Assembly: GCA_023898465.1 (NCBI GenBank)
Contig: CP060223.1
Coordinates: 352,001 to 416,000 of the forward strand
Direction of reading: 5' to 3'
Source: Candidatus Nomurabacteria bacterium
GTDB taxonomy: Bacteria; Patescibacteriota; Patescibacteriia; HK-STAS-PATE-3
Length of the DNA: 64,000 bases
Shown: positions 30,503-49,653 of the stretch, piece after piece
Position numbering within the stretch: the stretch's first letter is position 1
Layout of the letters: each line of letters opens with the position of its first letter
Notes under the pieces: generated by a model
Told to the model about the DNA's origin: nothing
The model's input: only the letters and a program-made list of their open reading frames with translations
The model's database searches: none
Program-made: the position numbers and the translations under genes

Positions 30503-31031
30503 GTGTACCAGTTAAGGGGTTACGTGCTTGCATACGATCTGGCCAAAGCATTTGGATAAAGCGATAACTGACCAGGGCGAAAAATACATTTTCCGCGATA
30601 CCAAGCAGCAAATATGACCACGCGGAAGGTGCAAAAACATCAGTTACATTGCTTTGGGTTAATAAACTGTAGCTGAAAAAGACCCCATAGGTCAAAAGTA
30701 TATAAGCAATACTACCAATAAGCGTGCAAGTCAGCACCAGTAGCCAGATTCGGTGAGTTCGCCAGGAGTTGGTGAGCAAAAAGCTCATAGTGCAACTAGC
30801 TGGAATAATAATGATATATTGAGCAGGAAAGGCGCTATAAAAATAGACGCTGAGCATCCAGCCGGTGATTAGGGCAACCGAGAGCGAGTGTCGAACTGAT
30901 ACGGTGAGTAATACTAAAGGAAAAACAAGCCAGAGTTGCAGTGGGTGTAGCCAGCTGGGTAGATAAGGTTGTGCGCTTAAGGAAAAAACGACCAACCCAA
31001 GCGCAATTATGACTATGAGACTATTCTTCAT
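30486..31031 (-). CDS. mreD: Rod-shape protein MreD (assigned by position)
   Basis: 181-aa polytopic membrane protein between mreC and PBP2, overlapping both. Confidence 0.5.
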   Translation of the reverse strand: MKNSLIVIIALGLVVFSLSAQPYLPSWLHPLQLWLVFPLVLLTVSVRHSLSVALITGWMLSVYFYSAFPAQYIIIIPASCTMSFLLTNSWRTHRIWLLVLTCTLIGSIAYILLTYGVFFSYSLLTQSNVTDVFAPSAWSYLLLGIAENVFFALVSYRFIQMLWPDRMQARNPLTGTHAFTT

Positions 31032-31845
31032 CTGTGCTTGGTCCTTGGACTACTGATACTAATTGTAGCCGATCAAGTGAAACTGGGTAGCGTATGCTGG
31101 CACTTTGAAATAGATTCGTGGCAGTTGAGCTGACATCGCCAACCGTACCAATCAGTAATCCACGAGGGACTCCGGCTTCTAGTCCAGCGGTTACGATGCT
31201 TTGTCCAAACTCGATTGGTTCATCTTGCGGCACAGTGGTAAGCCGAAGTGCGAGTCCCCTTTCACCGATTACAATTCCAGGAGAGTTAAACTCATTCTGT
31301 ACTTCTACTGATATTTTACTGCGTCGGTCAGTCACCAAGAGGACTTGAGCAGTGTTACTTGTTGTAGAAGAAACACGACCGATCACAATGCCGTCCTCCA
31401 CTACAACAACTTGACCAACAAATACACCGGAAGATTGCCCACGGTTAATAATAATAATTTGTGCACTAGGGTCTAAACTGCGACCAATAACGCGCGTGAC
31501 CTGGAAACGTAGGTTTTTAGTGCTTAGTAACTGTGATTGTTCATTTGCGCTGGCTTGGTCACGGAGCAAAGAACGCAGCTCTGCATTTTCTACCAACAAG
31601 GAATTCCGCTCTTCTTCGAGCTGGGCCACCTGGAACTGGAGGTCCCCTGTTACGCCTTTTGGTTGGAACCAGGATTGAATACCAGCCGCCATAGAGGCGC
31701 TTGCTTCTTGAATCGGATTAATAATAGCCGAGGTTAAAGATCGAAAAGGTTTACCAAAACCAAAAGCATCAAGCACTACCAAAAGAAGAATAGCTACCAG
31801 AAAAAGTAGCGTAAAACTTCTGGCTGAGAGACGACGCTGTGACAT
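31021..31845 (-). CDS. mreC: Rod-shape protein MreC
   Basis: N-terminal TM helix, coiled coil, and beta-rich C-domain (…GLLIGTV…). Lies 2 nt after mreB. Confidence 0.75.
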   Translation of the reverse strand: MSQRRLSARSFTLLFLVAILLLVVLDAFGFGKPFRSLTSAIINPIQEASASMAAGIQSWFQPKGVTGDLQFQVAQLEEERNSLLVENAELRSLLRDQASANEQSQLLSTKNLRFQVTRVIGRSLDPSAQIIIINRGQSSGVFVGQVVVVEDGIVIGRVSSTTSNTAQVLLVTDRRSKISVEVQNEFNSPGIVIGERGLALRLTTVPQDEPIEFGQSIVTAGLEAGVPRGLLIGTVGDVSSTATNLFQSASIRYPVSLDRLQLVSVVQGPSTDEE

Positions 31846-31846
31846 A

Positions 31847-32905
31847 CTACTTAATTAAGACGTTTTCGTCTTGGGTTGAGAGCACGAGTACTTTACGTAG
31901 CGCATCAAGATCTTCCAAAACTATACCGGTCCCACGTACTACCGTAGTAAGTGGGTCATCGGCAATATGAACTGGAATGCGTGCCTCTCGTTGAATTGAT
32001 TGATCTAAGCCTCGGAGTAAGGCGCCGCCACCAGAGAGGATAATACCTCGCTCGTAAATATCAGCTACTAACTCAGGCGGAGTACTTTCAATCGTAGTTT
32101 TAATTGCATCGATAATCATACGCACAGAGCGTTGAGTAGCTTCTAAAATATGTTGACTACTTACAGTGACCTCGCGAGGTAATCCACTAATCAAGTCGCG
32201 TCCCCGCATTTTTGTTTCTCGCTCTTCCACCTTCTCATTTGCTGCGCCAATGGCAATTTTAATATCCTCAGCAGTTCGTTCACCGAGAAGCAGATTAAAA
32301 TGATCGCGGGCGTAATTAATGATGTTCTCATTTAGTTCGTCGCCGGCTATACGCAGAGATTTCCAAGCCACCACACCACCTAGCGCAATGACTGCAATCT
32401 CCGTAGTTCCACCGCCAATATCGACGACCATATTTCCCGAAGGGTCTTGTATAGGCAGTCGTGATCCAATCGCTGCCGCCATTGGTTCTTCAATAAGATA
32501 CACTTCACGTGCGCCAGCTGAGAGAGTGGCGTCTTCAACTGCTTTACGCTCCACTTCTGTTACACCGAGCGGAATGCCAATAACTACGCGTGGGCGCGGT
32601 AAAAGCCCAGAGTTTTCTCGGTGCACTTTTTGGATAAAGTGCTTTAACATTTTTTCAGTAACTTCGAAGTCGGAAATTACACCGTCAACCAGAGGCCGAG
32701 TAGCTACAATGTGCCCAGGTGTTTTTCCTACCATTTTACGCGCCTCATCACCTACAGCAAGAATTTGATCGGTGCGGGTGTTGATGGCAACTACCGAAGG
32801 TTCGTTGATGACAATTCCCTTGTCTCGTACGTACACAAGCGTATTTGAGGTGCCGAGATCGATTCCCATGTCGCGGGAAAAACGACCAAAGATTCTATTG
32901 AGCAT
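31847..32905 (-). CDS. mreB: Actin-like rod-shape protein MreB
   Basis: MGIDLGTSNTLVYV…DIGGGTTEIAVI…ILSGGGALLRGLD are the MreB/actin-fold phosphate and adenosine motifs. Confidence 0.9.
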   Translation of the reverse strand: MLNRIFGRFSRDMGIDLGTSNTLVYVRDKGIVINEPSVVAINTRTDQILAVGDEARKMVGKTPGHIVATRPLVDGVISDFEVTEKMLKHFIQKVHRENSGLLPRPRVVIGIPLGVTEVERKAVEDATLSAGAREVYLIEEPMAAAIGSRLPIQDPSGNMVVDIGGGTTEIAVIALGGVVAWKSLRIAGDELNENIINYARDHFNLLLGERTAEDIKIAIGAANEKVEERETKMRGRDLISGLPREVTVSSQHILEATQRSVRMIIDAIKTTIESTPPELVADIYERGIILSGGGALLRGLDQSIQREARIPVHIADDPLTTVVRGTGIVLEDLDALRKVLVLSTQDENVLIK

Positions 32906-35831: not shown

Positions 35832-36899
35832 TTATTTCTCTACAAAAAGTGTACCAATAAAGTGTTGATCTGGACGTTGAGGATGAATCGCATATACCGT
35901 GACAAGTCGACTGGTGGGAATAGTAACTACTTCCCAAGTAGCTCCGGCGTCTTTGCTGATATGCAATTTATTTTCTGTTGTGAAGAAAATATTATTTGAG
36001 TTGCGCGGGTCAACATGCACAGTACGTATCACCAGTGTGTTATTAGGCACCAAAGTTTGCATTGCCTCCCAATTACTACCAAGGTCATTTGAACGAAGCA
36101 GGCCATAGTTGGTAGCGATATATATGCGTGATGCTTGTTGTGTGTCGAATGCTAATGCGTTTACCACATTTGCACCGTTAAATTGCATTAGGTTTTCTTG
36201 CAAAGGAGTCCAGGTTAATCCTGCATCGCCGGAACGTTGTAGATACTTCTTATCCACAATAGCCATGAGTATTGTTGCATCATTTGGATGCATGTAGAGC
36301 TGATTAACTGCGCTTTGGAAAATGTGAAGCACGTGCCAGGTCTGACCACGATCGAGACTTTCAAGAATCACTCCACCCGTGTTGCTGGCGTAGATGTGAT
36401 CGGCATTATTTGGTTCAATAACAATGCTGGTAATAACAAGCTGCTCACGTGATTCTGTATACACGCGATCCCAGGTAATTCCACCGTCAAAGCTTTTTTC
36501 AATATGAGGTCCGTAGCCAGCATAGAGGACTTCCGGCTCCTCCGGGTCGATTGCTAAGGCAATAACGTTACCATCTTGGCGTCCAGTTACCTGCCAGCGC
36601 TCGCCTGCATCTTCAGTTCGATAAAGACCGTTTCCACGGGTGCCATAGTAAATGGTGTCTGGGTCAGATGGGTGAAAGACAAATATGCCGCCATTCGCTT
36701 TCTCAATGGTGACCAGCTTTTTATCAACCGTGCCGATGATGGCTTTTTGCTCCCAAGTTTGACCCTGATCATCGCTACGAAAAGCTCCACCGTCTGCTTG
36801 TTTTGAGGGTCCAAAAATTGTGCAACTCTGTCCAGTGAGTGCAATAATGGAAAGTAATCCAATAGAGAGAAGTGTGGTGCGTAGTAGAGATTTAGACAT
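35832..36899 (-). CDS. Secreted BNR/Asp-box repeat beta-propeller protein (Ycf48/sortilin-like)
   Basis: The start is reset to the ATG after the holB stop. Signal peptide. Seven S-x-D-x-G-x-T/N-W repeats are present (SDDQGQTW, TEDAGERW, SFDGGITW, SLDRGQTW, SGDAGLTW, SNDLGSNW, SKDAGATW). Confidence 0.7.
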   Translation of the reverse strand: MSKSLLRTTLLSIGLLSIIALTGQSCTIFGPSKQADGGAFRSDDQGQTWEQKAIIGTVDKKLVTIEKANGGIFVFHPSDPDTIYYGTRGNGLYRTEDAGERWQVTGRQDGNVIALAIDPEEPEVLYAGYGPHIEKSFDGGITWDRVYTESREQLVITSIVIEPNNADHIYASNTGGVILESLDRGQTWHVLHIFQSAVNQLYMHPNDATILMAIVDKKYLQRSGDAGLTWTPLQENLMQFNGANVVNALAFDTQQASRIYIATNYGLLRSNDLGSNWEAMQTLVPNNTLVIRTVHVDPRNSNNIFFTTENKLHISKDAGATWEVVTIPTSRLVTVYAIHPQRPDQHFIGTLFVEK

Positions 36900-37863
36900 A
36901 GGTGAGAAGTAAATCCTCGAGTAAAAGTGCTGCTTGAGTGTTTTGTCGTAATAGTTTTTGACCCTGAAGCGCTTTGCGCACATGTTTCACTCGATGTGCC
37001 TGAAGTTTTTGTCCAGTCTGGTCTTTTTGAAAGAGTCGATTTTTTTCGTCGAGTACGAGATAGTGGAGAAATCGTGCAGCAATCTCTTGCTTTTCAGAGA
37101 ATTCTTTCACGCCCTTGAAAAGAGTCGTAACAAATTGGTGTTTTTCATGAAGCGACTGAGTGCGTAGTTGGCGAATATTCTCGAGCAGTTGTTCAGCTGC
37201 ATCTAGTGCCTCACTGTCATTTACCCAGTCGGTAAGTAGTCCAGGACGACCTTCTGCTAAAGCGACAATATCACGCGTGCGCTTCTTCTCAGAGAAATGT
37301 TCAAGTAAATGTTCTTCAAGTTGAGCATCTTTACTTCCCTGCAAAGGAATTTGCTGACAGCGAGATCGAAGCGTGCTAAGGAGGAGCTGTGGGTGTGAGC
37401 TAGTGCAGAGAAAAAGTGTTTTTGGCGGCGCATCCTCAAATGCCTTGAGTAATGCATTCATAGCCGATTCAGAAAGTGCATCTATATCACTCATGAGTAC
37501 AACACGGTGTTTTGCTCGTAAGGGACTTTGTTGTGCTGCTTGCACTATTTTTCGTACATCTTCAACACCTGAAAACTCAGCAGCAGAAAATCCAACAAAG
37601 TCAGTGTGGGAACTTAATTCTGTTGAGCTTACGATTGGCCATGGTAGCGTAGCCTCCATATCGTTAAGGATATGATGGGCAAAGATTTGAGCTAGCGTGG
37701 TTTTGCCTACTTGAGCGGGTCCGGTAAAAAGGTAGGCGTGATGTAAGGAGCCTGACTGCTGGACATTTTGCAAATACTGACAAACCTGCTCGTTCCCTAT
37801 AAAGTGCGGGAATGACCAGTTGGCGTTTTTTTGCGCCCGCTTAGGAGTTTTTTTCTTCATCAA
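36892..37863 (-). CDS. holB: DNA polymerase III delta' subunit
   Basis: AAA+ clamp-loader Walker A GPAQVGKTT and SRC-like SRCQ motif. Confidence 0.75.
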   Translation of the reverse strand: MMKKKTPKRAQKNANWSFPHFIGNEQVCQYLQNVQQSGSLHHAYLFTGPAQVGKTTLAQIFAHHILNDMEATLPWPIVSSTELSSHTDFVGFSAAEFSGVEDVRKIVQAAQQSPLRAKHRVVLMSDIDALSESAMNALLKAFEDAPPKTLFLCTSSHPQLLLSTLRSRCQQIPLQGSKDAQLEEHLLEHFSEKKRTRDIVALAEGRPGLLTDWVNDSEALDAAEQLLENIRQLRTQSLHEKHQFVTTLFKGVKEFSEKQEIAARFLHYLVLDEKNRLFQKDQTGQKLQAHRVKHVRKALQGQKLLRQNTQAALLLEDLLLTYV

Positions 37864-37902: not shown

Positions 37903-39087
37903 CTACATTTGCTCAATTAGGTCTCGTATTTGTTGACCTGTTTTTTGCCAGCTAAAGCCTTTTACTTGTTGGAACCCCTTTTCACGCAATTGTTCGCGCA
38001 GCTCGCTTGAACCATTCACATCCTTTAGTGCCTGGGCGATGCTCTCTGGTGTATCATCTCTCAAATAGTAAGCTGCATTGCCAGCCACTTCAGGCAAAGA
38101 CGCAAATTTTGAGCATATCACTGGCACGCCGAGCGCCATGGCCTCTAAAACCGGTAATCCAAAGCCTTCGTATTTACTTGGGAAAAGGAGCATGCGGGCT
38201 CCAGCCATAATTTGCGGAACTTCCTCGTGTACTCGCTCAAGTAAAAAGATTTGTTTCCGCGTTTCTTCATCAAGTGCAGCCCAGGCTTCGTCAAAGCCCG
38301 TACCCGGCTTGCCAATCAAGACAAGATGCTGATCTTTGTTTTCTTTTTGAAATTGTGCAAAACCGCGCAAAAGTCCATCTATGTTTTTTTTCTTTTCCCA
38401 ACGCCCAATAAAAAATACATATGATTCAGGAAGCGCATATGTGTGACGCGTTTGCGCAATCTCTTCTTCTGAATAAGTCTTTGCGTAATCAGGGTGTAAG
38501 CCATTATGAATAACCCGAATGCGCTCTTTAGGAAAAGGAAAAAAGTGGCAAATTTCATCGCGGGAGAAATTCGAAACGGTCAGGATCTCGCCTCCATGTT
38601 GTAACGCCATGCGGACACTAAAGCGGTGATAATCTAGCTCGTTGTTTCCGTAGCGTCCTAGTGAGAAAAGTCGCACAAAAAAACTAAAGAGGTAGCGCAA
38701 TACTCCTCTTTTTGGCCCAATGGGATGCTGCGCATAAAGTTCTGGAAAGCGTTCAAATCCCACGTCATGAATAGTCGTGATAAGTTTTTTGGGATGGATA
38801 AACGGAATTGTATGAGCAGGTACAAAAAGTATCTCAGGTTTATTCCAAAACATTTCCCAAGATAGCCGGAAGAGATTCCAAAGAAATTTTGGCGGCCATT
38901 TTAGCACTCGTATCTCAGCTTTTTCAGCCAGATAGTGCATATCAGCAACTAGGGGCTCCTTCACATACAGTACGTAGCTATTTTTTGTATCTTGCTCAAG
39001 TAACTCCTTGATAACAAAAAACGAGTACCATTCTGTGCCGGTACGGTGGAGCGTATTGGCGCGAGATGCATCAATACCGATTCGCAT
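37903..39087 (-). CDS. GT4-family glycosyltransferase
   Basis: C-terminal EX7E-type motif EGFGLPVLEAMALGVPVICS. Confidence 0.8.
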   Translation of the reverse strand: MRIGIDASRANTLHRTGTEWYSFFVIKELLEQDTKNSYVLYVKEPLVADMHYLAEKAEIRVLKWPPKFLWNLFRLSWEMFWNKPEILFVPAHTIPFIHPKKLITTIHDVGFERFPELYAQHPIGPKRGVLRYLFSFFVRLFSLGRYGNNELDYHRFSVRMALQHGGEILTVSNFSRDEICHFFPFPKERIRVIHNGLHPDYAKTYSEEEIAQTRHTYALPESYVFFIGRWEKKKNIDGLLRGFAQFQKENKDQHLVLIGKPGTGFDEAWAALDEETRKQIFLLERVHEEVPQIMAGARMLLFPSKYEGFGLPVLEAMALGVPVICSKFASLPEVAGNAAYYLRDDTPESIAQALKDVNGSSELREQLREKGFQQVKGFSWQKTGQQIRDLIEQM

Positions 39088-40101
39088 TTACTTTGTCATT
39101 AAAATGCTGCGCTTGTAGGATTCGAGGTTTTCTAGAGCAACTCCGGTGCCGCGAGCAACACAGAGACGGGTATCATCAGCCACATAGGCTGGCACACCGG
39201 TAGCTTGAGACATGAGTCGATCAATGTTGCGTAGCTGTGAGGATCCGCCACTAAGTACCATGCCTTTATCAATGACGTCGGCAGAGAGCTCAGGAGGAGT
39301 TTCCTGGAGCACTGATTTGACTGCTTGGATAATCCCAGCCAGCTCATCTTGAATTGCCTCAGTCACATCGTCAGACAGCACGGTAATGGTTTTTGGTAGA
39401 CCGCTAATAATATCGCGTCCGCGAACTTCTAGAGCCAATTTCTCATCCATTGGTAAAGCAGACCCGATCATTATTTTGACTTGCTCGGCTGTTTGCTCGC
39501 CAATTGCTAGGCCATATTTTTTGCGTATGTATTCCTGAATTGCGGCATCTAATTTGTTTCCTCCAATGCGCACTGAGGTATTTGCCACAATACCACCCAG
39601 GGAAATGACAGCAATTTCTGAGGTACCACCGCCAATATCGATAATCATGTGCCCAGAGGCAGATCCGATCGGGATATTTGCACCAATAGCCGCTGCAATA
39701 GGCTCTTTGATAATATACGCGGCCTTTGCTCCAGCGGCTAAGGTTGCGTCGACCACAGCTCTTCGTTCAGTTGAGGTAATGCCGGCCGGTACAGCAATCA
39801 TAACTTCAGGGCGGAAAAAGCGGACACCGCCAGAAGCTTTATTAATAAAATACCGCAGCATTGCTTCAGTCGTGCGATAGTCGGCAATTACTCCATCGCG
39901 AAGTGGTCGATATGCCACAATAGTGTCAGGGGTTCTTCCTAACATTTCCTTTGCTTCATCACCCACTGCGAGCACCTTCTTGTCCATCAATGAGACTGCC
40001 ACCACAGACGGTTCATTAATCACAATACCACGCCCGGGCACATGGACGAGCGTTGACGTGGTACCAAGATCAATCCCCAATCGTTTCAAGAAAAAAGCCA
40101 T
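39088..40101 (-). CDS. Second MreB-family actin-like protein (paralogue)
   Basis: LGIDLGTTSTLVHV…DIGGGTSEIAVISLGG…VLSGGSSQLRNID. It abuts the GT4 gene with no spacer. Confidence 0.85.
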   Translation of the reverse strand: MAFFLKRLGIDLGTTSTLVHVPGRGIVINEPSVVAVSLMDKKVLAVGDEAKEMLGRTPDTIVAYRPLRDGVIADYRTTEAMLRYFINKASGGVRFFRPEVMIAVPAGITSTERRAVVDATLAAGAKAAYIIKEPIAAAIGANIPIGSASGHMIIDIGGGTSEIAVISLGGIVANTSVRIGGNKLDAAIQEYIRKKYGLAIGEQTAEQVKIMIGSALPMDEKLALEVRGRDIISGLPKTITVLSDDVTEAIQDELAGIIQAVKSVLQETPPELSADVIDKGMVLSGGSSQLRNIDRLMSQATGVPAYVADDTRLCVARGTGVALENLESYKRSILMTK

Positions 40102-40102: not shown

Positions 40103-42043
40103 CTATTTCTCCAGGATGAAGGTCAGGTCGTGTGATAATGGACCGCTTAAATATACGCCATCGTTTTCACTTTGCAGATACTCGAGTGGTGTAATGGTGT
40201 GCGACTTATATCCAGGGTGGATACGTATTTCTAAGCTATGTGGCTCTGTGCCTGGCTGCTTCTGCACATCAAGCTGATAGTCACCCTTCTTTAGAGTATC
40301 TGTAATAGCTTTTGGTAGACGATATTGGATGTGTAAGTCCCCTTCTTCAAGTGGCTCAATCGAAGTGAAGCCTTGAATAACTGTTTTGCCTAAGTCTTCG
40401 TCAAGAGTGGGTTCAGTTGCTTTACCATTCTGAATTTTATCGTTGGTCAGGAAACCCTCTGCACTAATGAGCTCACTGCCAAGCGGGACGTAGATGCGAG
40501 TGTAGGTTCTATAGCGGGTAGACTTCCAGGTAATTGTCCCCTCGTTGCGGTAGTGCACGTTAAGCGTAGCAATAGCCTCACCATCAACCATTTCAACTGA
40601 GTAGCTAATAGTTCTCTTTACTCCCGGGTCACTCTTAAGCGAAGCCATGTTTGCATCAACAACATACAGGTAGTCATCTTCTGTTTCCTTTACTTCTCCA
40701 CCCCAGTTTTCGTCCTGAATAATCGCCTGCAGTTCAGGATCCTTGAGATAGAGCAGAATTTGCTTTTCCTCAACATTTTCTAGGAAGGTTGACCAAAGTC
40801 TATTCCAATCCGATTGAGGGAGCGCTAAAAGACGATCCATGAGGATTTGTGACATCTCGCCGATGATTTCTTTACGTGCTAATTCGTCTATACCTTGTTG
40901 ATAATATCCCTGTTCAACTTGGTACTGTAATGTGTCAACGAAGTTGTCACGTGTAAATTCGATATTTTGAACAGTTATACTGCCGGTTAGTTCGATCAAT
41001 GACTCAATAAAACTTGGAGTAACCGCGATTACTCCATCAAAGGATTTTACTGGACCGCGTTCTTGCTCATAAAACCAGAGGGCTTGCTCAGCAGCTCGTG
41101 GAAAATGTGGTGACCAGTTAGAGTCTCGTAAAAACCATTGCGTACTTCGTAAATATTTTTGCAGCGGCTCGGGTGGGTCAATATCCAGGAACTTTTCAGC
41201 TGGAACGTCGAGATTATAAATGTTATCTGTGGTAAAAGTCTCAATTTCGCCAGCATCAACCTTTAAGACGCCATAGGTGCCGATAAATCCACCGGTTGGA
41301 CGGAGTTCAGTATTATTCTGCAGCAAGAATAAGTAGGTTTGCTTATCAGGATAGCCGGCTAAAACTGGAATAGTGCGCGCTAGAGATGAAAACTGAGCCA
41401 CCGCGCTCTGCACCAAAGGAAGCTTTTCGCTAATGGGGTCAATTGCGCTTTGTAGTGGGCCAACTAAGCCCGTCTTCGGCACCTTGTTAAACTCCTCCAC
41501 TGATTGCGTAATTTTGGTTTCAGCATCACGTAGGACAGGATCAGCGTCATGTAGTTTACCTAAAAGCACTCGCTTATCTTGCGGTGTTAAACTCTTTAAG
41601 CTTAATTGCCCAGAAGCGTTTTGAAATGGAACAATCGTAGTATTCGCAAAATCTGCAATTTCATGAATTGCTTGACTGCTGGTGATTGCGGCTTGAATCA
41701 GATGATCGGCTGCTGTGTATTGACGTGCAGCATATGGCAAAACGCGAAGCCAGGCTAGCCCTCGCAGAGCGCTATCCGCTTCTTCAAACTTTCCAATCGC
41801 ATCGTTTAAGGAAATCGTGGCAGCAGAAAAATCCTGTGCCTCAAAATGTTCCTGGGCATTGAGAAGCGCGTTTTGACCGTCCTTGGCAGCTCGAGCAACC
41901 TTCACAGCAGATGGATACGAGAAAGCACCTAGAATAGCGATGATGATGATAAGACTGCCTAAAACAATCCCGAGGACCTTAGGCCACCGTCTCTTTTGCT
42001 TACCCTTCTTATGTAGATTTATAGATGTTGCGCGTTCTGGCAC
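40103..42043 (-). CDS. Hypothetical 646-aa membrane-anchored protein (DUF4012-like, tentative)
   Basis: One N-terminal TM helix and a large extracytoplasmic domain. The assignment rests on the motif NNTELRPTGGFIG, recalled from DUF4012 proteins and not verified here. Confidence 0.45.
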   Translation of the reverse strand: MPERATSINLHKKGKQKRRWPKVLGIVLGSLIIIIAILGAFSYPSAVKVARAAKDGQNALLNAQEHFEAQDFSAATISLNDAIGKFEEADSALRGLAWLRVLPYAARQYTAADHLIQAAITSSQAIHEIADFANTTIVPFQNASGQLSLKSLTPQDKRVLLGKLHDADPVLRDAETKITQSVEEFNKVPKTGLVGPLQSAIDPISEKLPLVQSAVAQFSSLARTIPVLAGYPDKQTYLFLLQNNTELRPTGGFIGTYGVLKVDAGEIETFTTDNIYNLDVPAEKFLDIDPPEPLQKYLRSTQWFLRDSNWSPHFPRAAEQALWFYEQERGPVKSFDGVIAVTPSFIESLIELTGSITVQNIEFTRDNFVDTLQYQVEQGYYQQGIDELARKEIIGEMSQILMDRLLALPQSDWNRLWSTFLENVEEKQILLYLKDPELQAIIQDENWGGEVKETEDDYLYVVDANMASLKSDPGVKRTISYSVEMVDGEAIATLNVHYRNEGTITWKSTRYRTYTRIYVPLGSELISAEGFLTNDKIQNGKATEPTLDEDLGKTVIQGFTSIEPLEEGDLHIQYRLPKAITDTLKKGDYQLDVQKQPGTEPHSLEIRIHPGYKSHTITPLEYLQSENDGVYLSGPLSHDLTFILEK

Positions 42044-42092
42044 GTTGCACTTTCAACTAGGCAATGGAGCTTCAAATTCTACTGAAAAATGC

Positions 42093-42923
42093 TTACTCCG
42101 TCAAGCCTGGAATAGGATGTGAGGATGGCGTGTTTTGCCGAAAATATTTGGCAAAGTAGCGAATACCGGAATGAATGTGAATTCGGGTGGCTGCAGTAAA
42201 TATGCCACTAAGGCCCGGACTCTCAGCAGATAAACGACGATGATAATGCACTAAGGCTGCTTCTGGATAATAGTAGACCGCATAGCCTGCCGCCCAAAAG
42301 CGTCTGCACCAATCCACATCTTCAAAATAAAGGAAGTATCGCTCATCCATTTCACCAATCTGCTCATAGGCTGACCGTCGTACGAGCATACAGGCACCTA
42401 ATACCCAGTCCACTGGCTGCGTGTGCGTCTTTTCGGTATCACGCATGATGTAGTGGCGAAGTGCCTTTTTTGCCCAAGGCAAATTACCCAAAGGTGTACG
42501 GCGATAGAGAGGAATCATCATGCCAGGAAATCGATACATTGATTCCTGGACAGTTCCATCAGGATTGGTAAGTTTTGGAGCGAGTAAAGCAATTTGCGGA
42601 TTTTTTTTCATGAAATCGAGCATCTTCTCGATCATGTTTTCAAAAATGGCAATGTCAGGATTGATGATAAGGAAAAACTGACCTTGCGCGGCTCGCATAC
42701 CCACATTATTTCCAGATGCTAAGCCCCTGTTTTCATTAAGTTGAATACCTTTGACGTCTGGAAAACGCTCCTGCAGCATTTCCATTGTGCCGTCATTGGA
42801 ATTATTATCTACGACGATAACTTCATATGAACAGCGCAAATGAGATTGTTCAATACCACGCAAGCAGGTTTTTACTAAACCGCGCGATTTATAATTTACG
42901 ATAATTATTGATAGTTCAACCAT
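42093..42923 (-). CDS. GT2-family glycosyltransferase
   Basis: SIIIVNYKS…VVDNNSNDGT GT-A N-terminus and a DxD motif. Confidence 0.8.
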   Translation of the reverse strand: MVELSIIIVNYKSRGLVKTCLRGIEQSHLRCSYEVIVVDNNSNDGTMEMLQERFPDVKGIQLNENRGLASGNNVGMRAAQGQFFLIINPDIAIFENMIEKMLDFMKKNPQIALLAPKLTNPDGTVQESMYRFPGMMIPLYRRTPLGNLPWAKKALRHYIMRDTEKTHTQPVDWVLGACMLVRRSAYEQIGEMDERYFLYFEDVDWCRRFWAAGYAVYYYPEAALVHYHRRLSAESPGLSGIFTAATRIHIHSGIRYFAKYFRQNTPSSHPIPGLTE

Positions 42924-42924: not shown

Positions 42925-43947
42925 CTATTGAAACCATTTACGAAGTGATTGTTGGGAAACGCGAGCCTTATGCATGAGGGCTTTTTTCTTTTTCCGCATT
43001 AGGGGCATTAATTTGAGAGCAGCGATACTCTGCCGCAGAACTGAAGGCTGAAAGAAAAGCAGGTAAATAAACTTTTTCAGTTCATAGCTTAGTATCCAAG
43101 GAGCGCTAAGAAGAAAACTTGCGATACTTTCATTTTTTGCAAGCATGAGCAAATGATTTCGGTACGAGAGTGCGTTAATCACCTTTGCTCTATGTCGATG
43201 TTCAGCAACAACCTGTCGGGTGCTTTCACTATCACCTCGGGCACTTCGATGGTGATATGCCAGCGCCTGTGGTATGCACCATGCTTCCCAACCAAGTCGC
43301 TGTAAGCGCCAGGCCATATCCACATCTTCTTTGTAGGCAAAGAATTCCTCATCAAAGTACTCATCTTGGTAACGAACATCTTCTAGGGCCTGTCGTCGGT
43401 ATACTACTGCAGAGCCGCTTATGCCAAACACTGGGGTAGGAGCATCGAATTGACCTCGATCTCGCTGACCCTCCCCACGATCGACCACTCGCCGGCTACG
43501 CAGACCCTGTAAACCGACCGAATCAATCCTATCAGACATATCTACTTGCTTCAAATCCCCTTCCGCAAAGGCGAATCTTAGCGTTTTTCCGCCAATGCTG
43601 CCGCATTTGGGCTTGCTTTGTATGCCATGCATCAGAGTTTCCAGGAATGTAGATGTGGCGATGATATCCGGATTAAGCACAAGGACAAATGGTGAGCTGG
43701 AGAAATGAATACCTTGATTATGTGCTTTTGCGAAGCCCAGGTTTGTACGATTTTTTATTACCTGAATTTGTGGATAGTTTGCGCTAAGAATTGCAAGCGT
43801 GTCATCAGTAGAATTATTATCGATAATTAACACGCGGAAGTTTTGGTAGCTTTGTTTTTTTAGCGATTCCAAGCAATGCTGAATAAAAATTCCACTATTC
43901 CAGGTGACAATATGAATACTTAATTCTGGCGTTTCAGGATTCTGCAT
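42925..43947 (-). CDS. GT2-family glycosyltransferase
   Basis: SIHIVTWNSG…LIIDNNSTDDT. Start is uncertain: the internal ATG at 43947 is preferred to the TTG at 44004. Confidence 0.7.
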   Translation of the reverse strand: MQNPETPELSIHIVTWNSGIFIQHCLESLKKQSYQNFRVLIIDNNSTDDTLAILSANYPQIQVIKNRTNLGFAKAHNQGIHFSSSPFVLVLNPDIIATSTFLETLMHGIQSKPKCGSIGGKTLRFAFAEGDLKQVDMSDRIDSVGLQGLRSRRVVDRGEGQRDRGQFDAPTPVFGISGSAVVYRRQALEDVRYQDEYFDEEFFAYKEDVDMAWRLQRLGWEAWCIPQALAYHHRSARGDSESTRQVVAEHRHRAKVINALSYRNHLLMLAKNESIASFLLSAPWILSYELKKFIYLLFFQPSVLRQSIAALKLMPLMRKKKKALMHKARVSQQSLRKWFQ

Positions 43948-45505
43948 GAGTATTTGGAACAAGCGTGAAAATGAGAGCGCACATGAGTATCGCGCTAATA
44001 CCAAGCGGATGGTTTAAATATGGTGTAAAGGCGTGAGCAGCGAGTAAGGAAAGTAATGCGCTGAGCGTACCAAGTTTAATAATCAGTTCATATTGGTTTT
44101 GTACCTTCCACTGAAATCCTTTCCGAAAGACACTTCCCAAAAAGATGAGATAGATAAGTAAGCCAATACCTCCTAGTTTTACTAAAAGGTCTAAGTAGCC
44201 CCACTCATACACATAGACCGCTACAGTTTCTACCTCGTCGGTCCCGGCTACCAGTGAACGATATCGAACAAGTGTTCCAAAGCCGGATCCAATAAGAGGC
44301 GCCTCTTTTATTTTTTCAACAACATTGGGCAGTAATTGTAAACGGTTCGATGCGGCAAGCTCGGTGTTAGGTTGAAAAAGTGATTGCAGGCGTCCCACGC
44401 TGGCATCCCAAGCACCCGGCACAATTGCTAAAGCTCCTAGCATAACAACAAGCACAGTCAGCGAGGTAAGGAAAAGGCGTAACTTGAATTGCTTTGGTAA
44501 TATGGCAAAAAGAAAAAGTATTCCGACAGCTAACCCAAACCAAAAGCTACGTGAGAATCCGATAAACAGTGCTGCGCCAAGTAAAAAGAGGCTAAGTACA
44601 CCGATGTATCGCGAGCTGCTCCACTTACTTGTCTGTAAGAGAAAAAGCAGGGCTGGAAAAAGTAGTAATAAAATGTAGAGATGGCTTATTACAAAAACCC
44701 GGAAAATTCTTCCACTAAAGTATGATATTTCAGCCATGCCGGTATCTCTTGCCCAGCGATAGACACTTGGACGATCTTGAGTTATCTCACTGCGGTCAAG
44801 TTGAATTTTTGAAGCATCGAGCTTTGTAGTCTGGCCAAGTCGGGCTGGCTCACCACTATCCTCATCCAACTTTGCCAGTTGTCCTGAATCAACCTGGGTG
44901 GCACTTACAAAATTTGGACGATAATAGACCGTGGCAAAAAGTGTGCTTAAGAAGAAGGTAAAAACTATTAGGGCCAAGGTTGCGGCAGCGCCCCAGTAAG
45001 CAAGACTACGCAGCTGCCCTATATTTCGTATACTCTGGAACAACGGGAAAACAAAAAGAAAATAAATATAGCCATTGAGGTCAAAAAACCATATCTCGTG
45101 CGGATTTTTTGCATAGCCCAGCATAGCTGCGAGGAGGATCCAGAGCGCCAAGCTGAGTAATGGCCAGCGAAATTGGCTTTGCCATACCGTTATTCTTTTT
45201 TCACGTATGACTTGCCAAAGAAAGACGAGACCGAGAATGCCGAAAATGGCGTAGCGAATGGGAATAGCCTGACCAAAAGCGACAATAGAAAAAATGTAAC
45301 CCTTGCCGCCAATAATAAGTTCGCTCAGAGCTATATAAATTCCATACTCCGGTGCTCGAAAGCTAAGGTAAATGGTACACGCAACAATGAGGAAAAAAAG
45401 CGTGGTATTTATCCAAGGGTAGAGAAAACCAAGATACGCTAATCCGTAAAGCGCTAAACACACACTAGAGAGCAAGGAAACTTTCTTCAGCACAGTATTA
45501 GTCAT
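43934..45505 (-). CDS. O-antigen ligase/polymerase (Wzy/WaaL-like) membrane protein
   Basis: About 12 TM helices with a large outward loop. Sits in a GT/Wzx cluster. Confidence 0.6.
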   Translation of the reverse strand: MTNTVLKKVSLLSSVCLALYGLAYLGFLYPWINTTLFFLIVACTIYLSFRAPEYGIYIALSELIIGGKGYIFSIVAFGQAIPIRYAIFGILGLVFLWQVIREKRITVWQSQFRWPLLSLALWILLAAMLGYAKNPHEIWFFDLNGYIYFLFVFPLFQSIRNIGQLRSLAYWGAAATLALIVFTFFLSTLFATVYYRPNFVSATQVDSGQLAKLDEDSGEPARLGQTTKLDASKIQLDRSEITQDRPSVYRWARDTGMAEISYFSGRIFRVFVISHLYILLLLFPALLFLLQTSKWSSSRYIGVLSLFLLGAALFIGFSRSFWFGLAVGILFLFAILPKQFKLRLFLTSLTVLVVMLGALAIVPGAWDASVGRLQSLFQPNTELAASNRLQLLPNVVEKIKEAPLIGSGFGTLVRYRSLVAGTDEVETVAVYVYEWGYLDLLVKLGGIGLLIYLIFLGSVFRKGFQWKVQNQYELIIKLGTLSALLSLLAAHAFTPYLNHPLGISAILMCALIFTLVPNTHAES

Positions 45506-46430
45506 GCGCGGTTGGAGTTTTAAGCTTTAGCATGCTAAGCGGAGCGGCCAGCGCGGCCAGAAAAAGACTAAGAGGTCGAGCGAGTCTAAGAACTATAGTA
45601 TCCCATCGTGAGCCATGTTTGGCAAAATAGATTTGCATGCTGTGAATAAAATAGCGCTGCTTGGTAATACTGAGCACTTGCCTGAAGCTCTCACCTCGAG
45701 CATGAAATACTTCTGCCTGTGAGGTATAAAAGACTTTAAGTCCGGCCTTTTTTACACGATAGCAATAATCAACTTCTTCAAACCATATAAAATAGTCCTC
45801 ATCAAGTAGGCCCACTTGTTCAATTGCATTTTTGTGTATAAGAAAAAATGCTCCTTTTACCTGATCCACTTCCCCATCCTGCGTATAATTCCAACTCGAT
45901 GCGTAGTACCTTTTCAAGGCAGGAAAACGAGGGAAAAATCGATGCAGTTTAAGCATGATGAGTAACTGATCGCTTAGCTGAGGAAAAGCTCGAATACTCT
46001 CTTGCGTTGTTCCATCTTCATTTACGAGACGGCATCCGAGCACGCCAATATTTTCTTCCTGTTCCAGCACTTGTTTTACCTTACTTAACGTATCTATTTT
46101 GACAATTGCATCTGGGTTAAGGAGTAGCATGTGGCCGGGTTTTGCAGCACGTATGCCTTGATTTACCGCCTTTGCAAAGCCTACATTTTTACTATTGGCA
46201 ATGAGAGTAATGTTTGGATACTTTTCTTTTAGCGACCTAAGCGAGCCATCTTGGGAGGCGTTATCGACAACGATAATATCTTCTGGATTTTGCCTGCTCT
46301 GCAAAAGCGCGGCTATGCATTGGAGTACTAACTCCCTCACATTCCAGCTCACAATTATTACGGTCATAGGTGTTTGAGACATTAGCGTACTGGGTGCAGA
46401 AGCCGATAAATCGTAAAGGAGATTTTCCAT
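45498..46430 (-). CDS. GT2-family glycosyltransferase
   Basis: MTVIIVSWNV…VVDNASQDGS. Start is uncertain, with alternative in-frame ATGs. Confidence 0.75.
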   Translation of the reverse strand: MENLLYDLSASAPSTLMSQTPMTVIIVSWNVRELVLQCIAALLQSRQNPEDIIVVDNASQDGSLRSLKEKYPNITLIANSKNVGFAKAVNQGIRAAKPGHMLLLNPDAIVKIDTLSKVKQVLEQEENIGVLGCRLVNEDGTTQESIRAFPQLSDQLLIMLKLHRFFPRFPALKRYYASSWNYTQDGEVDQVKGAFFLIHKNAIEQVGLLDEDYFIWFEEVDYCYRVKKAGLKVFYTSQAEVFHARGESFRQVLSITKQRYFIHSMQIYFAKHGSRWDTIVLRLARPLSLFLAALAAPLSMLKLKTPTAHD

Positions 46431-47107
46431 ACAAGACTCTTCAATGCGCCGCCTTTAGGGAGTTGATGCTTTTGAGACAGGTACGCCTTAGCCTCGGCCC
46501 GCAACTCACTACGAGTGCTAATTGCACTGCGCTGATGTGCTAAGGTCTGAAAGAGTTGAGGTGCTACAGCGACTCCCCTGCCTCCTTTTTCCACCACACT
46601 TAACCAGAGATCCCAGTCTTGGAAGCGCTTCAGGTGAGTATCAAAGCCCGGGAAATGTGCACGGCGGATGAGCGACATCGTGGAAATAAAGTTTAAGCGT
46701 TGTAGCCAGTAGTGGCTGAAATGTACTGCTGGCATTGGCCGCTCATCAAACACAAAGCTACCATAAGCAAAGGCGGCCTTAGTATTTTTTTGAAGTGCAG
46801 TGAGTAAGGTGTGAAGCGCATTCGGCGCTAACTTCACATCTGCATCGCAAAAGTAAAGATATGCACCTTTACTGAGTCGTGCTCCAGCGTTGCGAGCAGC
46901 TGGTGCGCCTTGAGCTTCCTGTTGAAGTACTTGGATATTTTCTTTAGCTAAATCCTGGGCAATATGCAAAGTATCTTGAGTTGCTCCGTCGCAGACAATA
47001 ATAATTTCTACATTAACACTTTGCTGCTCCTGAATACTTTGTACAGTAGTGCGTAGAGTCTCCGCATCATTTTGACACGGGATGATAACACTAATAAGCT
47101 CATTCAT
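46382..47107 (-). CDS. GT2-family glycosyltransferase
   Basis: ISVIIPCQNDAETL…CDADV DxD motif. The start is reset to the ATG 2 nt after the upstream stop. Confidence 0.75.
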   Translation of the reverse strand: MNELISVIIPCQNDAETLRTTVQSIQEQQSVNVEIIIVCDGATQDTLHIAQDLAKENIQVLQQEAQGAPAARNAGARLSKGAYLYFCDADVKLAPNALHTLLTALQKNTKAAFAYGSFVFDERPMPAVHFSHYWLQRLNFISTMSLIRRAHFPGFDTHLKRFQDWDLWLSVVEKGGRGVAVAPQLFQTLAHQRSAISTRSELRAEAKAYLSQKHQLPKGGALKSLVWKISFTIYRLLHPVR

Positions 47108-48224
47108 GAAGGAGCTCCTCCATTGTGCGCTTCCAGGTAAATTCAGTTTGCACACGAGTATAATGCTTCTCACCTAATTGTTGTGCCCAGGTTTGGTCAC
47201 CCATAAGCTCTTTTATGGCTCTAGCTAACTCCTCTGGATTTCCCGGATCAACTAGTAGTCCGCTTTGCGCGGGTAGCACAATATCCTCGGCTCCACTTTG
47301 CCTTGTGGCGATAACAGGTAGCCTATAACGAGCAGCTTCTAAGAGTACTATTCCGAAACTTTCTGCGTGTCCTCTCACTGGGCGACTAGGTAGTACAAAC
47401 ACATCAGCTTGCGCATACCATTTAGCTTTTTCTTCAGCATTGTCTGGTATTGCTCCGATGAAATGTACTTGCTCAAGTATGCCTAATGTATTGGCGAGTT
47501 GTTTGAGGGCGCCCATTTCGGGACCATCACCAACGACAATGTAGCGAACAGGTGCTTTTAGCAATGCTAAAGCGTGAAGCATGACATCAATCCCCTTCAT
47601 TGCTACTAGTCGACTTATTGTGAGGACGGTAAAACCTTCAGTTGATGTTCTCTGTGGTAATTCCGGAAAATCAGCAAAATCAATCCCAGGGTGTGCAATG
47701 CGAATTTTTTTCTGAAGCTTTGGGTCTGTACCAAAATGCTTTGCGGTCTGATTGCTGTTTGCATAAAGAGTGTCGGCAAAGCGTAAGGTCAACCGGTAAA
47801 AAAATGCATGCACTGGATTTTGTTGCGGCAACACAGCATCAATGCCGTGAGACATAATATCGTAGCGGATTCCTAAACAGAGACGCATGAGTGGCGCAAG
47901 GATAGCGTATTGCGCATAGTGGCCAAATAAAATGCGATGTATTTCAAAGCGACGTATATACCGTGGAAGTCGCCAAAGCATAGGAAGCCAGCTTGGCTTG
48001 CACCAAGACCAGGCAAAAAGCTTTTGACGAATTACCCGGTGTGGAATGTTGTCATCATTCGCGTCTACTTCTTTATCCGTCCAAATAATCAGCGAATCCT
48101 CTGGCCATCGTCTCGTTACCTCAGACCAAAAATGCTCTAAACCTCCAAGTTTAGGCGGAAAAAAAGCGGTAATGAGTAATGTTTTATTCTGCCGTTGCGC
48201 CATTTCTTCGTCGAATAATCCCAT
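47100..48224 (-). CDS. GT4-family glycosyltransferase
   Basis: Typical GT-B C-domain (…VLPSRPVRGHAESFGIVLLEAARYRLPVIAT…). Confidence 0.8.
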   Translation of the reverse strand: MGLFDEEMAQRQNKTLLITAFFPPKLGGLEHFWSEVTRRWPEDSLIIWTDKEVDANDDNIPHRVIRQKLFAWSWCKPSWLPMLWRLPRYIRRFEIHRILFGHYAQYAILAPLMRLCLGIRYDIMSHGIDAVLPQQNPVHAFFYRLTLRFADTLYANSNQTAKHFGTDPKLQKKIRIAHPGIDFADFPELPQRTSTEGFTVLTISRLVAMKGIDVMLHALALLKAPVRYIVVGDGPEMGALKQLANTLGILEQVHFIGAIPDNAEEKAKWYAQADVFVLPSRPVRGHAESFGIVLLEAARYRLPVIATRQSGAEDIVLPAQSGLLVDPGNPEELARAIKELMGDQTWAQQLGEKHYTRVQTEFTWKRTMEELLHE

Positions 48225-49653
48225 AAAGTGTTTGTATGTCTGTACGGGTTATCCCTCCAACTAGGAAGAAGGCAATGGCATAAATAATCGCGGCGATCGG
48301 TAGCAGGGCAAAGACAGACAAGCTAGAACCAAGCGCTAAAAGAATCCCTACCATAATCGCAGAAGCAATGAGGCTGCGAGCCCAACGTCCGAGGAGCCAA
48401 ACGATGCGATACTTCGCCACTTTCCATGACCAGATTGTGCTGAGCACAAAGAGTACTAATGCACTAAGGAGCGCTGCTGCACTTGCTCCAACATGCTGCC
48501 ATTGTGGGATAAGAATAACATTCGCCACGATGTTAACAATGGTTGTAATCATTATATTAATCGTGTGAATTTTCTGTTTATTACATGCTCCAAGCAAGGT
48601 TCCGGCAATGAGATTAATGAAAATAAATGGAAGGCTAAGGATGGAAACCTGCAAAGCTGAAATACTCTGGGCGTAGGTTGGCCAAAGATTTGGGTTGGTG
48701 ATCAGAGGACCAGCGAGGACAAAAACACCAGCCGCAATTGGTGTGCCAATACTGAGCATGAAAAAATATGATTGTTCAAGCAAGCGTCGCAGCTTATCCT
48801 GTGAGCTAAGATAAAGCTCACTGAAGGCCGGAAAGACACTATTAGAGATTGCTAAAGGTAAAAACTGAATAGCATACGTAAGCTTGTAGGCAACACTGTA
48901 CCATCCCACATGTGCGTCATCCGTCATCTGTTTAAGTAAGACAATATCAACGTAGGCATAGAGCTTCGTGAAGATGCCAGCCAGGAAAAACGGTGTTGCC
49001 CACTTAGCAAATTGCTTGATAACCGAAAGATCAATCCGAGGAGTAACTTTGAATTTCAGCGTCCTGACCATATGCCAAAGTGCATAGGAAAAGTTTGCCA
49101 AGGCGCCGAGCATCACGGCAATACCCAGGATAATCGGACTAGGGTTAATTACTAAGCCAACAATGCCGAAACCTAGCACAAAGACTTGGTGAATAATCGT
49201 TCCAGTGGCTTCGTAGCGGAAGTTTTGATACCCACGAAAAATGCCATACAGCGTAACGCTGAAGGATTCGATAACCATTGAGATTCCAGCCAGCCAAAGC
49301 ACTTCTTGGGTAAGAATATCGTATCCTAAAATGAGTGCGGTAACCCAAATTCCGGCATAGGCCAGCACCGCCAAGAAAATTTTAATCGCCAGTATGGTGG
49401 AAAGATAACTTTGCGTTTTCTCTTTTGCTCGAGCGACTTCACGAATAAGTACTGGGTTAAGTCCCAGATCAATACCAATGCTAAAGATCGTGACAAAAGA
49501 AATAGCAAAGACATAAATACCCGTATGCTCAGGTGAAAGTGTGCGAGAATAAAAAACAAAGTACCCAAATGAGAGCACTTTTTGTGCAATATACGCGGCC
49601 GTGAGATAGGTCGAGTTTCTAAGTACTTTTCCTGAACTTTCGGAAGGTGACAA
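48184..49653 (-). CDS. Wzx-like oligosaccharide flippase (MOP superfamily)
   Basis: About 14 TM helices, 489 aa, with a polysaccharide-biosynthesis-protein pattern. First gene of the glycan locus. Confidence 0.7.
   Translation of the reverse strand: MSPSESSGKVLRNSTYLTAAYIAQKVLSFGYFVFYSRTLSPEHTGIYVFAISFVTIFSIGIDLGLNPVLIREVARAKEKTQSYLSTILAIKIFLAVLAYAGIWVTALILGYDILTQEVLWLAGISMVIESFSVTLYGIFRGYQNFRYEATGTIIHQVFVLGFGIVGLVINPSPIILGIAVMLGALANFSYALWHMVRTLKFKVTPRIDLSVIKQFAKWATPFFLAGIFTKLYAYVDIVLLKQMTDDAHVGWYSVAYKLTYAIQFLPLAISNSVFPAFSELYLSSQDKLRRLLEQSYFFMLSIGTPIAAGVFVLAGPLITNPNLWPTYAQSISALQVSILSLPFIFINLIAGTLLGACNKQKIHTINIMITTIVNIVANVILIPQWQHVGASAAALLSALVLFVLSTIWSWKVAKYRIVWLLGRWARSLIASAIMVGILLALGSSLSVFALLPIAAIIYAIAFFLVGGITRTDIQTLYGIIRRRNGATAE

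Follow-up and report, generated by a model that had tools for sequence, protein, structure and literature searches.

We analysed a 64,000-nucleotide stretch of contig CP060223.1 of a Candidatus Nomurabacteria bacterium (assembly GCA_023898465.1, positions 352,001 to 416,000 of the forward strand; hereafter the window), which encodes two MreB proteins. MreB1 is the copy in the mre operon (31847-32905), and the subject of this study is its paralogue MreB2, an open reading frame (ORF) at 39088-40101. The MreB2 gene is placed between the genes of a DUF4012 protein and of a family 4 glycosyltransferase, GT4b. A functional tie between the MreB2 subfamily and glycan synthesis appears well supported on comparative-genomic grounds, because the linkage to glycan genes is conserved, resists rearrangement and is present in Chloroflexota. 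The gene linkage suggests, without proving, a filament dedicated to organising polysaccharide synthesis.

MreB2 and the MreB family

MreB2 is a bona fide MreB-family protein. The Pfam family PF06723 (MreB_Mbl) covers it over its full length (E = 2.4e-133, 444 bits; cut-off 27), with residues 6-330 aligned to profile positions 2-326 of 327, and it scores above threshold with the NCBIfam models NF010539 (458.8 bits, cut-off 293) and TIGR00904 (445.6 bits, cut-off 365.75). The closest solved structures are the MreBs of Geobacillus, Thermotoga and Caulobacter, and the Spiroplasma structures 7bvy and 7e1c are distant matches. Identity as MreBH was rejected (NF010540, 372 bits, below the cut-off of 515), as was an FtsA, PilM, MamK, BeeR or ParM type, with scores far under the cut-offs (bits/cut-off: MamK 75/400, FtsA 53/176, PilM 29/133, BeeR 55/530).

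The nucleotide-binding and catalytic motifs are intact, comprising phosphate-1 (GIDLGT), the catalytic Glu within KEPIAAAIG, phosphate-2 (DIGGGTSE) and the adenosine motif (LSGGSS). Across 81 MreB2 sequences GIDLGT, KEP(E), DIGGGT(S/T)E and GGS are kept, and these align with the motifs of T. maritima, C. crescentus and E. coli. Substitutions specific to the clade include a Lys for the Glu that immediately precedes the catalytic Glu, Thr for Val at 111, Ile for Leu at 143 and Ser for Glu at 147. The N-terminus of MreB2 is short and lacks an N-terminal helix, and a loop of the form GG-x-R-(L/F)-F-R-P aligns with the L93/F94 insertion loop of T. maritima MreB, whereas MreB1 begins with an E. coli-like amphipathic segment (MLNRIFGRFSRD). 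From these differences in the alignment, each paralogue seems to rely on a different one of the two modes of membrane binding known for MreB.

MreB2 and MreB1 of the window share 49% identity. In a neighbour-joining (NJ) tree of 81 MreB2 and 13 MreB1 sequences with the MreBs of E. coli, Caulobacter, Thermotoga and Geobacillus (200 bootstraps), MreB2 and MreB1 formed one clade each, both in 200/200 bootstraps. Identity between the clades is 47%, while each is ~50% identical to MreBs of other phyla, which rules out a recent tandem duplication as the origin of MreB2. Mean identity in the same 13 genomes is 79% for MreB2 versus 69% for MreB1. By these measures, MreB2 is an ancient and strongly constrained duplicate. 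Sister sequences from the Candidate Phyla Radiation (CPR) and Chloroflexota, at 50-57% identity, group with MreB2 in 192-195 of 200 NJ bootstraps, leaving out MreB1 and the MreBs of E. coli, Caulobacter, Geobacillus and Synergistota. Judged from this tree, MreB2 is a member of a distinct, ancient MreB subfamily common to CPR/Patescibacteria and Chloroflexota.

The atp-MurA-MreB gene order in Chloroflexota recalls murAA...mbl in Bacillus, and for this reason we considered MreB2 as an orthologue of Bacillus Mbl. This was rejected: a clade of MreB2 and Mbl was found in only 31/200 NJ bootstraps, with 48.6% identity, in a comparison that used retrieved Bacillaceae Mbl-type database sequences, the locus context being verified for one. 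At a Bacillus methanolicus Mbl locus (CP007739.1, L089, 2259-12905), murAA and spoIID are followed by several other genes, spoIIID, mbl, flhO and flhP. This order echoes the MurA-MreB2-like adjacency of Chloroflexota and one CPR lineage, and the tree does not join Mbl and MreB2.

Conserved neighbours of MreB2

We scanned one genome per GTDB species and obtained at least 600 matching stretches, at least 583 of which encode a relative. Neighbours were counted in the best 80 of these at least 583 loci, which are 72-83% identical to MreB2 and come from species-level genomes titled Kerfeld-, Komeili-, Uhr-, Magasanik-, Falkow- and Buchananbacteria, Parcubacteria and Paceibacter. Using Pfam, the gene immediately upstream of MreB2 encodes a DUF4012 protein in 55 of 77 loci, a CheY-like receiver in 6, GreA in 5 and a family 2 glycosyltransferase (GT2) in 4, and the gene immediately downstream encodes a GT4 in 54 of 75 loci and a Bac_transf priming transferase in 4 of 75. 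A separate hidden Markov model classification concurs (DUF4012 upstream in 56/77, GT4 downstream in 52/75). The GT4s adjoining MreB2 constitute a single orthogroup, that of GT4b (53 of 55, plus 10 displaced by at least one gene; bootstrap 78/100), which excludes all other GT4s of the loci, including GT4a, the second GT4 of the window locus. Upstream of DUF4012, the glycosyltransferase pair GT2c-GT2d is kept in many loci. The mreC gene is next to MreB2 in none of the 80 loci, while MreB1 does adjoin mreC.

MreB2 is found on either side of the mre operon, yet stays with glycan genes, and this linkage is kept in at least four rearranged contexts. In the first of these, greA and MreB2 are followed by a WbaP-like transferase and three GT4 genes. 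A second runs from a sugar-nucleotide dehydratase and a CheY-like receiver through MreB2 and GT4b to an S8 subtilase with FG-GAP repeats and an epimerase, and a third places two MacB/FtsX genes before DUF4012, MreB2 and GT4b. In the fourth (locus L017), ClpB, a WecA/TagO-type PF00953 protein, a 494-residue GT2_3-family protein, GT2c and GT2d precede MreB2.

A search of 1.84 billion cluster representatives retrieved the next-nearest MreB2-like clusters at 54-59% identity. In one CPR sister lineage (P0244) the gene order is MurA, MreB2-like, holB, frr, rseP and MreB1-like. Three others (P0243, P0259 and P0256) have a divergent PEGA-domain gene, the MreB2-like gene and then TagA/WecG, either directly or past a small ORF or gap. 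In Chloroflexota (P0396), atpG/D/C and MurA precede the MreB2-like gene, which is followed by a GT4, a reverse-strand GT4, a polysaccharide deacetylase, TagA/WecG and two GT2s. The neighbouring Chloroflexota GT4 matches GT4b (127 bits, 34% identity) far better than GT4a (46 bits). A Synergistota relative with ~50% identity is located in a canonical mreBCD-PBP2-minCDE-rodA operon. Thus, the conserved neighbours of the subfamily are committed-step or priming transferases (GT4b, TagA, WbaP-type and WecA-type) and MurA, with MreC and MreD not among them.

The initial annotation had linked MreB2 to glycan synthesis and had proposed a phylogeny, as a check for a recent tandem duplicate, and a synteny comparison for glycosyltransferase linkage in relatives. 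The link came through both, in that the paralogues form separate clades and the linkage persists in rearranged genomes and in Chloroflexota. Its emphasis on the flipping and polymerisation genes as the partners of MreB2 did not hold, since the conserved partners are cytoplasmic-face transferases (GT4, TagA, WbaP-like and MurA) and DUF4012, rather than the Wzx and Wzy genes. No gene for a LytR-CpsA-Psr (LCP) protein was seen beside MreB2 in the loci examined.

Several further genes were observed around MreB2 in these relatives. In six genomes (L072 5503-5919, L073, L075, L076, L077 and L080), the gene directly upstream of MreB2 encodes a stand-alone CheY-like receiver (~138 residues, PF00072). 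It is preceded by sugar-nucleotide dehydratase or epimerase genes and may provide a regulatory input to the MreB2 module. Directly downstream of GT4b, Falkowbacteria-type genomes carry a secreted S8 subtilase with FG-GAP repeats (~680-780 residues) and an NAD-dependent epimerase (~340-370 residues; L056 8412-11704, L072 8219-11378, also L034, L043, L044, L055, L060, L065-L067 and L073-L080). A TrmB-type (sugar-specific) transcriptional regulator follows GT4b at L013 8282-9046, and ORFs of ~250-290 residues occupy the same position in about ten other Uhrbacteria-type loci. The divergent PEGA-domain proteins of the sister lineages (382-401 residues) flank the MreB2-like gene on one side, with TagA/WecG on the other (L084 512-4107, L085 4673-8602 and L086 249-3417), and murB is nearby in two of these three loci (L084 and L085).

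At L017 1549-4128 the PF00953 primer and the GT2_3 protein lie directly upstream of GT2c-GT2d-MreB2. The window homologue of this GT2_3 protein is a 508-residue membrane glycosyltransferase (9368-10894, plus strand), which lies far from the cluster, as does TagA/WecG. The L017 arrangement suggests that TagA/WecG, the GT2_3 protein and a WecA/TagO primer are parts of a single GlcNAc-PP-undecaprenyl-primed pathway.

Taxon labels in the database cannot be relied on for these loci. Many metagenome-assembled genomes with this Patescibacteria-type locus are titled 'uncultured Gammaproteobacteria bacterium' (L002, L007, L009, L012 and others) and one (L076) 'Bacillota'; the nearest MreB2 relatives are titled Kerfeldbacteria or Patescibacteria, and the window contig Nomurabacteria. 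Taken together, the titles of the window contig and of these nearest relatives assign the window to a CPR/Patescibacteria genome.

Gene map of the window

From ~25 to 50 kb, every gene is on the minus strand. The genes are transcribed in the order rpsI, Wzx, GT4a, GT2a, GT2b, Wzy_C, GT2c, GT2d, DUF4012, MreB2 and GT4b, followed by holB, a BNR beta-propeller gene, frr, rseP, proS, MreB1, MreC, a positional MreD, PBP2 and greA. The principal features are as follows.

39088-40101, minus strand: MreB2, 337 residues, intact ORF with an ATG start, PF06723 match
40103-42043, minus strand: DUF4012 protein, 646 residues, PF13196 (E = 1.2e-33), immediately upstream of MreB2
37903-39087, minus strand: GT4b, GT4-family glycosyltransferase, 394 residues, Glycos_transf_1 (E = 5.7e-29)
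42093-42923, minus strand: GT2d glycosyltransferase, PF00535 (E = 1.7e-22), 49-nt gap to the DUF4012 start
42925-44004, minus strand: GT2c glycosyltransferase, PF00535 (E = 4.9e-24)
43934-45505, minus strand: Wzy_C/O-antigen-ligase-family polytopic membrane protein, polymerase or ligase, 523 residues, PF04932 (E = 4.4e-13)
45498-46430, minus strand: GT2b glycosyltransferase, PF00535 (E = 6.3e-22)
46382-47173, minus strand: GT2a glycosyltransferase, PF00535 (E = 2.6e-26)
47100-48224, minus strand: GT4a glycosyltransferase, of an orthogroup other than that of GT4b, PF00534 (E = 7.8e-37)
48184-49653, minus strand: Wzx-type flippase (Polysacc_synt/MurJ-like MOP family), PF01943 (E = 4.6e-34)
28565-32905, minus strand: MreB1-MreC-MreD-PBP2 operon of the peptidoglycan elongasome
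31847-32905, minus strand: MreB1, followed by MreC, with the E. coli-like N-terminal amphipathic segment
31021-31845, minus strand: MreC, PF04085
30486-31031, minus strand: MreD by position, polytopic
28565-30502, minus strand: PBP2, PBP_dimer and Transpeptidase domains
17016-17744, plus strand: TagA/WecG-family glycosyltransferase (wall-polymer linkage-unit type), PF03808 (E = 1.7e-57), unlinked to MreB2 here
42076-42104, minus strand: weak promoter-like site TTGACG-17-TAGAAT (10/12), starting in the final codons of GT2d and reaching into the 49-nt gap that precedes DUF4012

The stop codon of DUF4012 is separated by 1 nt from the ATG of MreB2, and the TAA of MreB2 is directly followed by the ATG of GT4b (0 nt). 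The DUF4012-MreB2-GT4b unit, which may be co-transcribed, is bounded by gaps of 49 and 39 nt. Scans for consensus promoters and terminators gave counts similar to those in shuffled controls (22 vs 26.1 and 20 vs 18.2), and the promoter scan found only the one weak site listed above upstream of DUF4012. The MreD call is positional only, because the polytopic protein at 30486-31031 has no Pfam match.

These results agree with most of what the initial annotation had described, namely a full-length second MreB with intact motifs, a canonical mreB in an mreBCD-PBP2 operon at 28.5-32.9 kb, a 'DUF4012-like' membrane protein, which is a true DUF4012 match, and GT2/GT4/Wzy/Wzx surroundings, where Pfam found four GT2s, GT4, Wzy_C and Polysacc_synt. 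Its spacings of 0 nt to the GT4 gene and 1 nt to the DUF4012 gene are also correct, but it placed the GT4 gene upstream. As all these genes lie on the minus strand the order is reversed, with DUF4012 upstream of MreB2 and GT4b downstream.

By Pfam, the flippase, Wzy_C, four GT2s and two GT4s of a Wzx/Wzy-type locus are present, and the flippase scores below the cut-off of the NCBIfam model Wzx_EPS. Among the window ORFs scanned with Pfam there was no priming phosphoglycosyl transferase (WbaP/Bac_transf or WecA/PF00953) and no match for a chain-length regulator (Wzz/PCP) or an LCP ligase.

The window is otherwise unusually rich in envelope genes, including a Mur ligase, ftsW/rodA, murG, murC, murB, secA, alanine racemase, an M23 peptidase and a DPBB and S11 D,D-carboxypeptidase fusion (58403-63920, 55368-58061 and 24033-25154 on the minus strand; 376-1926 and 20527-21852 on the plus strand). 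Sizeable ORFs without a Pfam match are found at 4799-6271 (+), 6273-7130 (+), 15414-16883 (-) and 22982-24022 (-), in addition to 30486-31031 (-). The BNR/Sortilin-Vps10-like beta-propeller gene (35832-36983, minus strand) encodes an N-terminal signal-like segment, and in many CPR loci it retains its place between holB and frr. Among the NCBIfam models its best match is the F510_1955 glycosylhydrolase family (138 bits, cut-off 175), and its true start is probably an internal Met because the ORF overlaps the holB ORF by ~90 nt.

The DUF4012 protein

The DUF4012 protein matches PF13196 over residues 234-375 (117 bits, cut-off 28), and a database entry named 'DUF4012 domain-containing protein' matches it with 100% identity. 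It is built from a basic N-terminal tail of ~20 residues, one hydrophobic helix and a large extracytoplasmic part, and the basic tail and single hydrophobic helix point to an N-in topology. The AlphaFold2 model is of high confidence (predicted local distance difference test, pLDDT, 89.2; predicted template modelling score, pTM, 0.85). In it, a long helical bundle is combined with an alpha/beta core and with beta-sandwiches at the C-terminal end, and no full-length structural analogue was found in the PDB. Invariant residues start only at P103 and are mostly polar or charged positions of the ectodomain. Among the invariant residues are E246, D279, D307, D457, D463, K470, D472 and R510/R512/R516. 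The conserved motifs include LQNNTELRPTGGFIGTYG, RDSNWSPDFP, VVDANLASLKSD and TRYRTYTRVYVP, and the invariant polar and charged motifs hint at a candidate catalytic or glycan-binding site. The DUF4012 protein would hold the place of an extracytoplasmic accessory protein in the locus, a putative role. The family is enriched in CPR and Gram-positives and has been discussed alongside cell-surface and host-interaction families (PMC6744442).

A proposed role for MreB2

We propose that a membrane-bound MreB2 filament scaffolds the cytoplasmic-face synthesis of an undecaprenyl-linked wall or surface polysaccharide, alongside the MreB1-MreCD-PBP2 elongasome, and we give this proposal about an even chance of being correct. 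MreB2, in which all the nucleotide-binding and catalytic motifs are retained and a hydrophobic insertion loop of the Thermotoga type is present, would polymerise on the inner face of the membrane. The filament would recruit or position the peripheral GT4b, its most constant partner, perhaps by direct contact, and via GT4b a membrane assembly line of a WecA/WbaP-type primer, the GT2s, Wzx and the Wzy_C protein would be positioned. The bitopic DUF4012 protein, a further possible contact of MreB2, would act on the product outside the membrane. The putative wall or surface polysaccharide would then be produced at the sites and times of peptidoglycan insertion by the MreB1-MreCD-PBP2 elongasome. 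The scheme has two precedents. The wall-teichoic-acid ligases of the LCP family in B. subtilis (TagTUV) were discovered as MreB interaction partners (PMC7831098), and ABY1-class Patescibacteria have been proposed to carry wall polysaccharides of rhamnose (PMC11809585).

Several observations weigh against this proposal. The 80 loci are those with the best scores and are not independent of one another phylogenetically, and DUF4012 or GT4b is missing from the position next to MreB2 in about a quarter of the genomes. Tight spacing is generic in these genomes, where greA-MreB2 junctions also span -1 to 7 nt. The position of MreB2 is conserved next to holB-frr-rseP-MreB1 as well, and the P0244 MreB2-like gene has no glycosyltransferase beside it. 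As CPR genomes keep long co-directional arrays of housekeeping and envelope genes, part of the linkage between MreB2 and glycan genes may be frozen synteny. We considered whether DUF4012 has a conserved MreB-binding peptide in its cytoplasmic tail and rejected this, as no invariant residue precedes P103; with the tail not conserved, there is no obvious MreB-binding peptide in the protein. Sequence matches of GT4b in NCBIfam and the PDB did not give a specificity, returning only generic GT4 relatives (MshA, BshA and GlgA), all below cut-offs.

The main rival to the scaffold proposal is that MreB2 is a second elongasome isoform similar to Mbl or MreBH, which co-polymerises with MreB1 and guides peptidoglycan synthesis, its location reflecting the general clustering of envelope genes in streamlined genomes. 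We regard this as possible, if rather unlikely. Several MreB isoforms can share one machine in Bacillus, and MreB2 passes all MreB models, lies 6 kb from mreBCD-PBP2 in the window and directly follows mreB1-mreC-mreD-PBP2-greA in five genomes. The generic tight spacing and the P0244 arrangement noted above are in keeping with an isoform, as is the window as a whole, a single long run of envelope and housekeeping genes (mur genes, ftsW, secA and alr). However, the neighbour of MreB2 is one specific GT4 orthogroup rather than any envelope gene, and when MreB2 switches sides of the mre operon the glycan genes move along with it. In distant lineages and Chloroflexota the partners are swapped for analogous enzymes (TagA and WbaP-like), MreB2 never adjoins mreC, and it does not group with Bacillaceae Mbl.

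The scaffold proposal could also be taken further, in that MreB2, GT4b (or a TagA/WbaP-type enzyme) and DUF4012 might form a self-contained 'glycopolymer elongasome' in CPR and Chloroflexota, dedicated to wall polysaccharide. The three components would be analogous to MreB, the Mur/MraY enzymes and MreC/PBP2, respectively, and DUF4012 would represent a novel kind of extracellular factor that processes or ligates glycans. We offer this extension as speculative and, as a whole, unlikely.

An improbable alternative is that MreB2 and DUF4012 serve other surface structures, for example the glycosylation or anchoring of S-layer proteins, pilins or adhesins via Wzy_C, for attachment of an episymbiont to its host. 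Wzy_C-family proteins include O-antigen ligases and protein O-oligosaccharyltransferases, and the window has an O-oligosaccharyltransferase-like PF04932 match; that gene, however, falls outside the set of closely conserved neighbours. Beside MreB2 modules, secreted S8 subtilases with FG-GAP repeats and PEGA-domain proteins are found repeatedly, and the published discussion of DUF4012 with cell-surface and host-interaction families cited above also fits. Against this, the structural matches of DUF4012 are partial (template modelling score at most 0.18), and the TagA/WecG, MurA and WecA partners point to peptidoglycan-linked polymers. Finally, an adjacency without functional meaning, inherited by hitch-hiking in slowly rearranging small genomes, is very improbable, as the linkage outlasts at least four rearrangements, non-orthologous transferase replacement and the CPR-Chloroflexota divide, even though the best 80 loci come from related lineages, the flanking housekeeping genes holB, frr and rseP keep their positions just as well and the scans for promoters and terminators gave no information.

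The placement of wall glycopolymers (teichoic acids, rhamnose polysaccharides and secondary wall polymers) relative to peptidoglycan growth is poorly understood, and the link of MreB to glycopolymers has so far come from interaction and localisation data in Bacillus. If the scaffold proposal is true, MreB2 would provide genetic evidence that the link between cytoskeleton and glycopolymers is of ancient origin and that a dedicated paralogue can take it over. MreB2 would also give a pathway context to the CPR-enriched orphan family DUF4012 and a reason why ultra-small CPR cells retain two MreBs despite extreme genome reduction, and Chloroflexota would possibly be tractable hosts for testing the idea.

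Comparison with known systems

We compared MreB2 to other MreB systems. The canonical elongasome MreBs of E. coli, Caulobacter, Thermotoga and Geobacillus share its fold family and motifs (47-55% identity), and their mode of action, as ATP-dependent, membrane-bound double filaments, is predicted for MreB2 too. Unlike these proteins, MreB2 is never beside mreC or mreD, has clade-specific substitutions and is neighboured by glycan transferases and DUF4012. The short N-terminus and hydrophobic loop are of the Gram-positive/Thermotoga type.

The arrangement in the window resembles MreB, Mbl and MreBH of B. subtilis, where a monoderm-type cell also has several ancient paralogues, only one of them in the mreBCD operon. 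However, the Bacillus isoform genes do not lie within glycan clusters, the Mbl locus being murAA...spoIIID-mbl-flhOP. The setting of MreB2 is also reminiscent of B. subtilis MreB in that the latter is physically and genetically tied to wall-glycopolymer attachment enzymes (PMC7831098).

For DUF4012, the Wzx/Wzy-type exopolysaccharide locus of Bifidobacterium longum 105-A has a family member (BL105A_0406) between the priming transferase and wzz (PMC5412050). In contrast to the MreB2-DUF4012 pairing, the part of the gene table covered contains no MreB gene, and the portions of PMC5412050 and PMC6744442 consulted do not describe a pairing of DUF4012 with MreB.

Spiroplasma MreB1-5 and Streptomyces MreB/Mbl offer a precedent for MreB paralogues with roles beyond vegetative rod elongation, whereas their clades and partners differ from those of MreB2. 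Streptomyces MreB and Mbl act in spore-wall synthesis, and we know of no Spiroplasma or Streptomyces MreB paralogue inside a glycosyltransferase cluster.

Two clades of CPR MreBs were described by Takahashi et al. 2020 (bioRxiv 10.1101/2020.05.13.095042), who found both in some Parcubacteria and Microgenomates species and suggested different roles for the two types, giving no genomic context or function. MreB1 and MreB2 of the window fit that picture, our clades not being directly mapped onto theirs. The literature searched for the DUF4012-MreB2-GT4 module, its TagA, WbaP-type and MurA variants and the Chloroflexota extension contained no report of them. What our analysis adds to the earlier work is that MreB2 is linked to DUF4012, GT4b, TagA and MurA, that it has relatives in Chloroflexota and that the two paralogues seem to differ in their membrane-binding elements. 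Thus, the existence of two CPR MreB types is already published, and the conserved association of the MreB2 subfamily with glycan pathways is apparently new.

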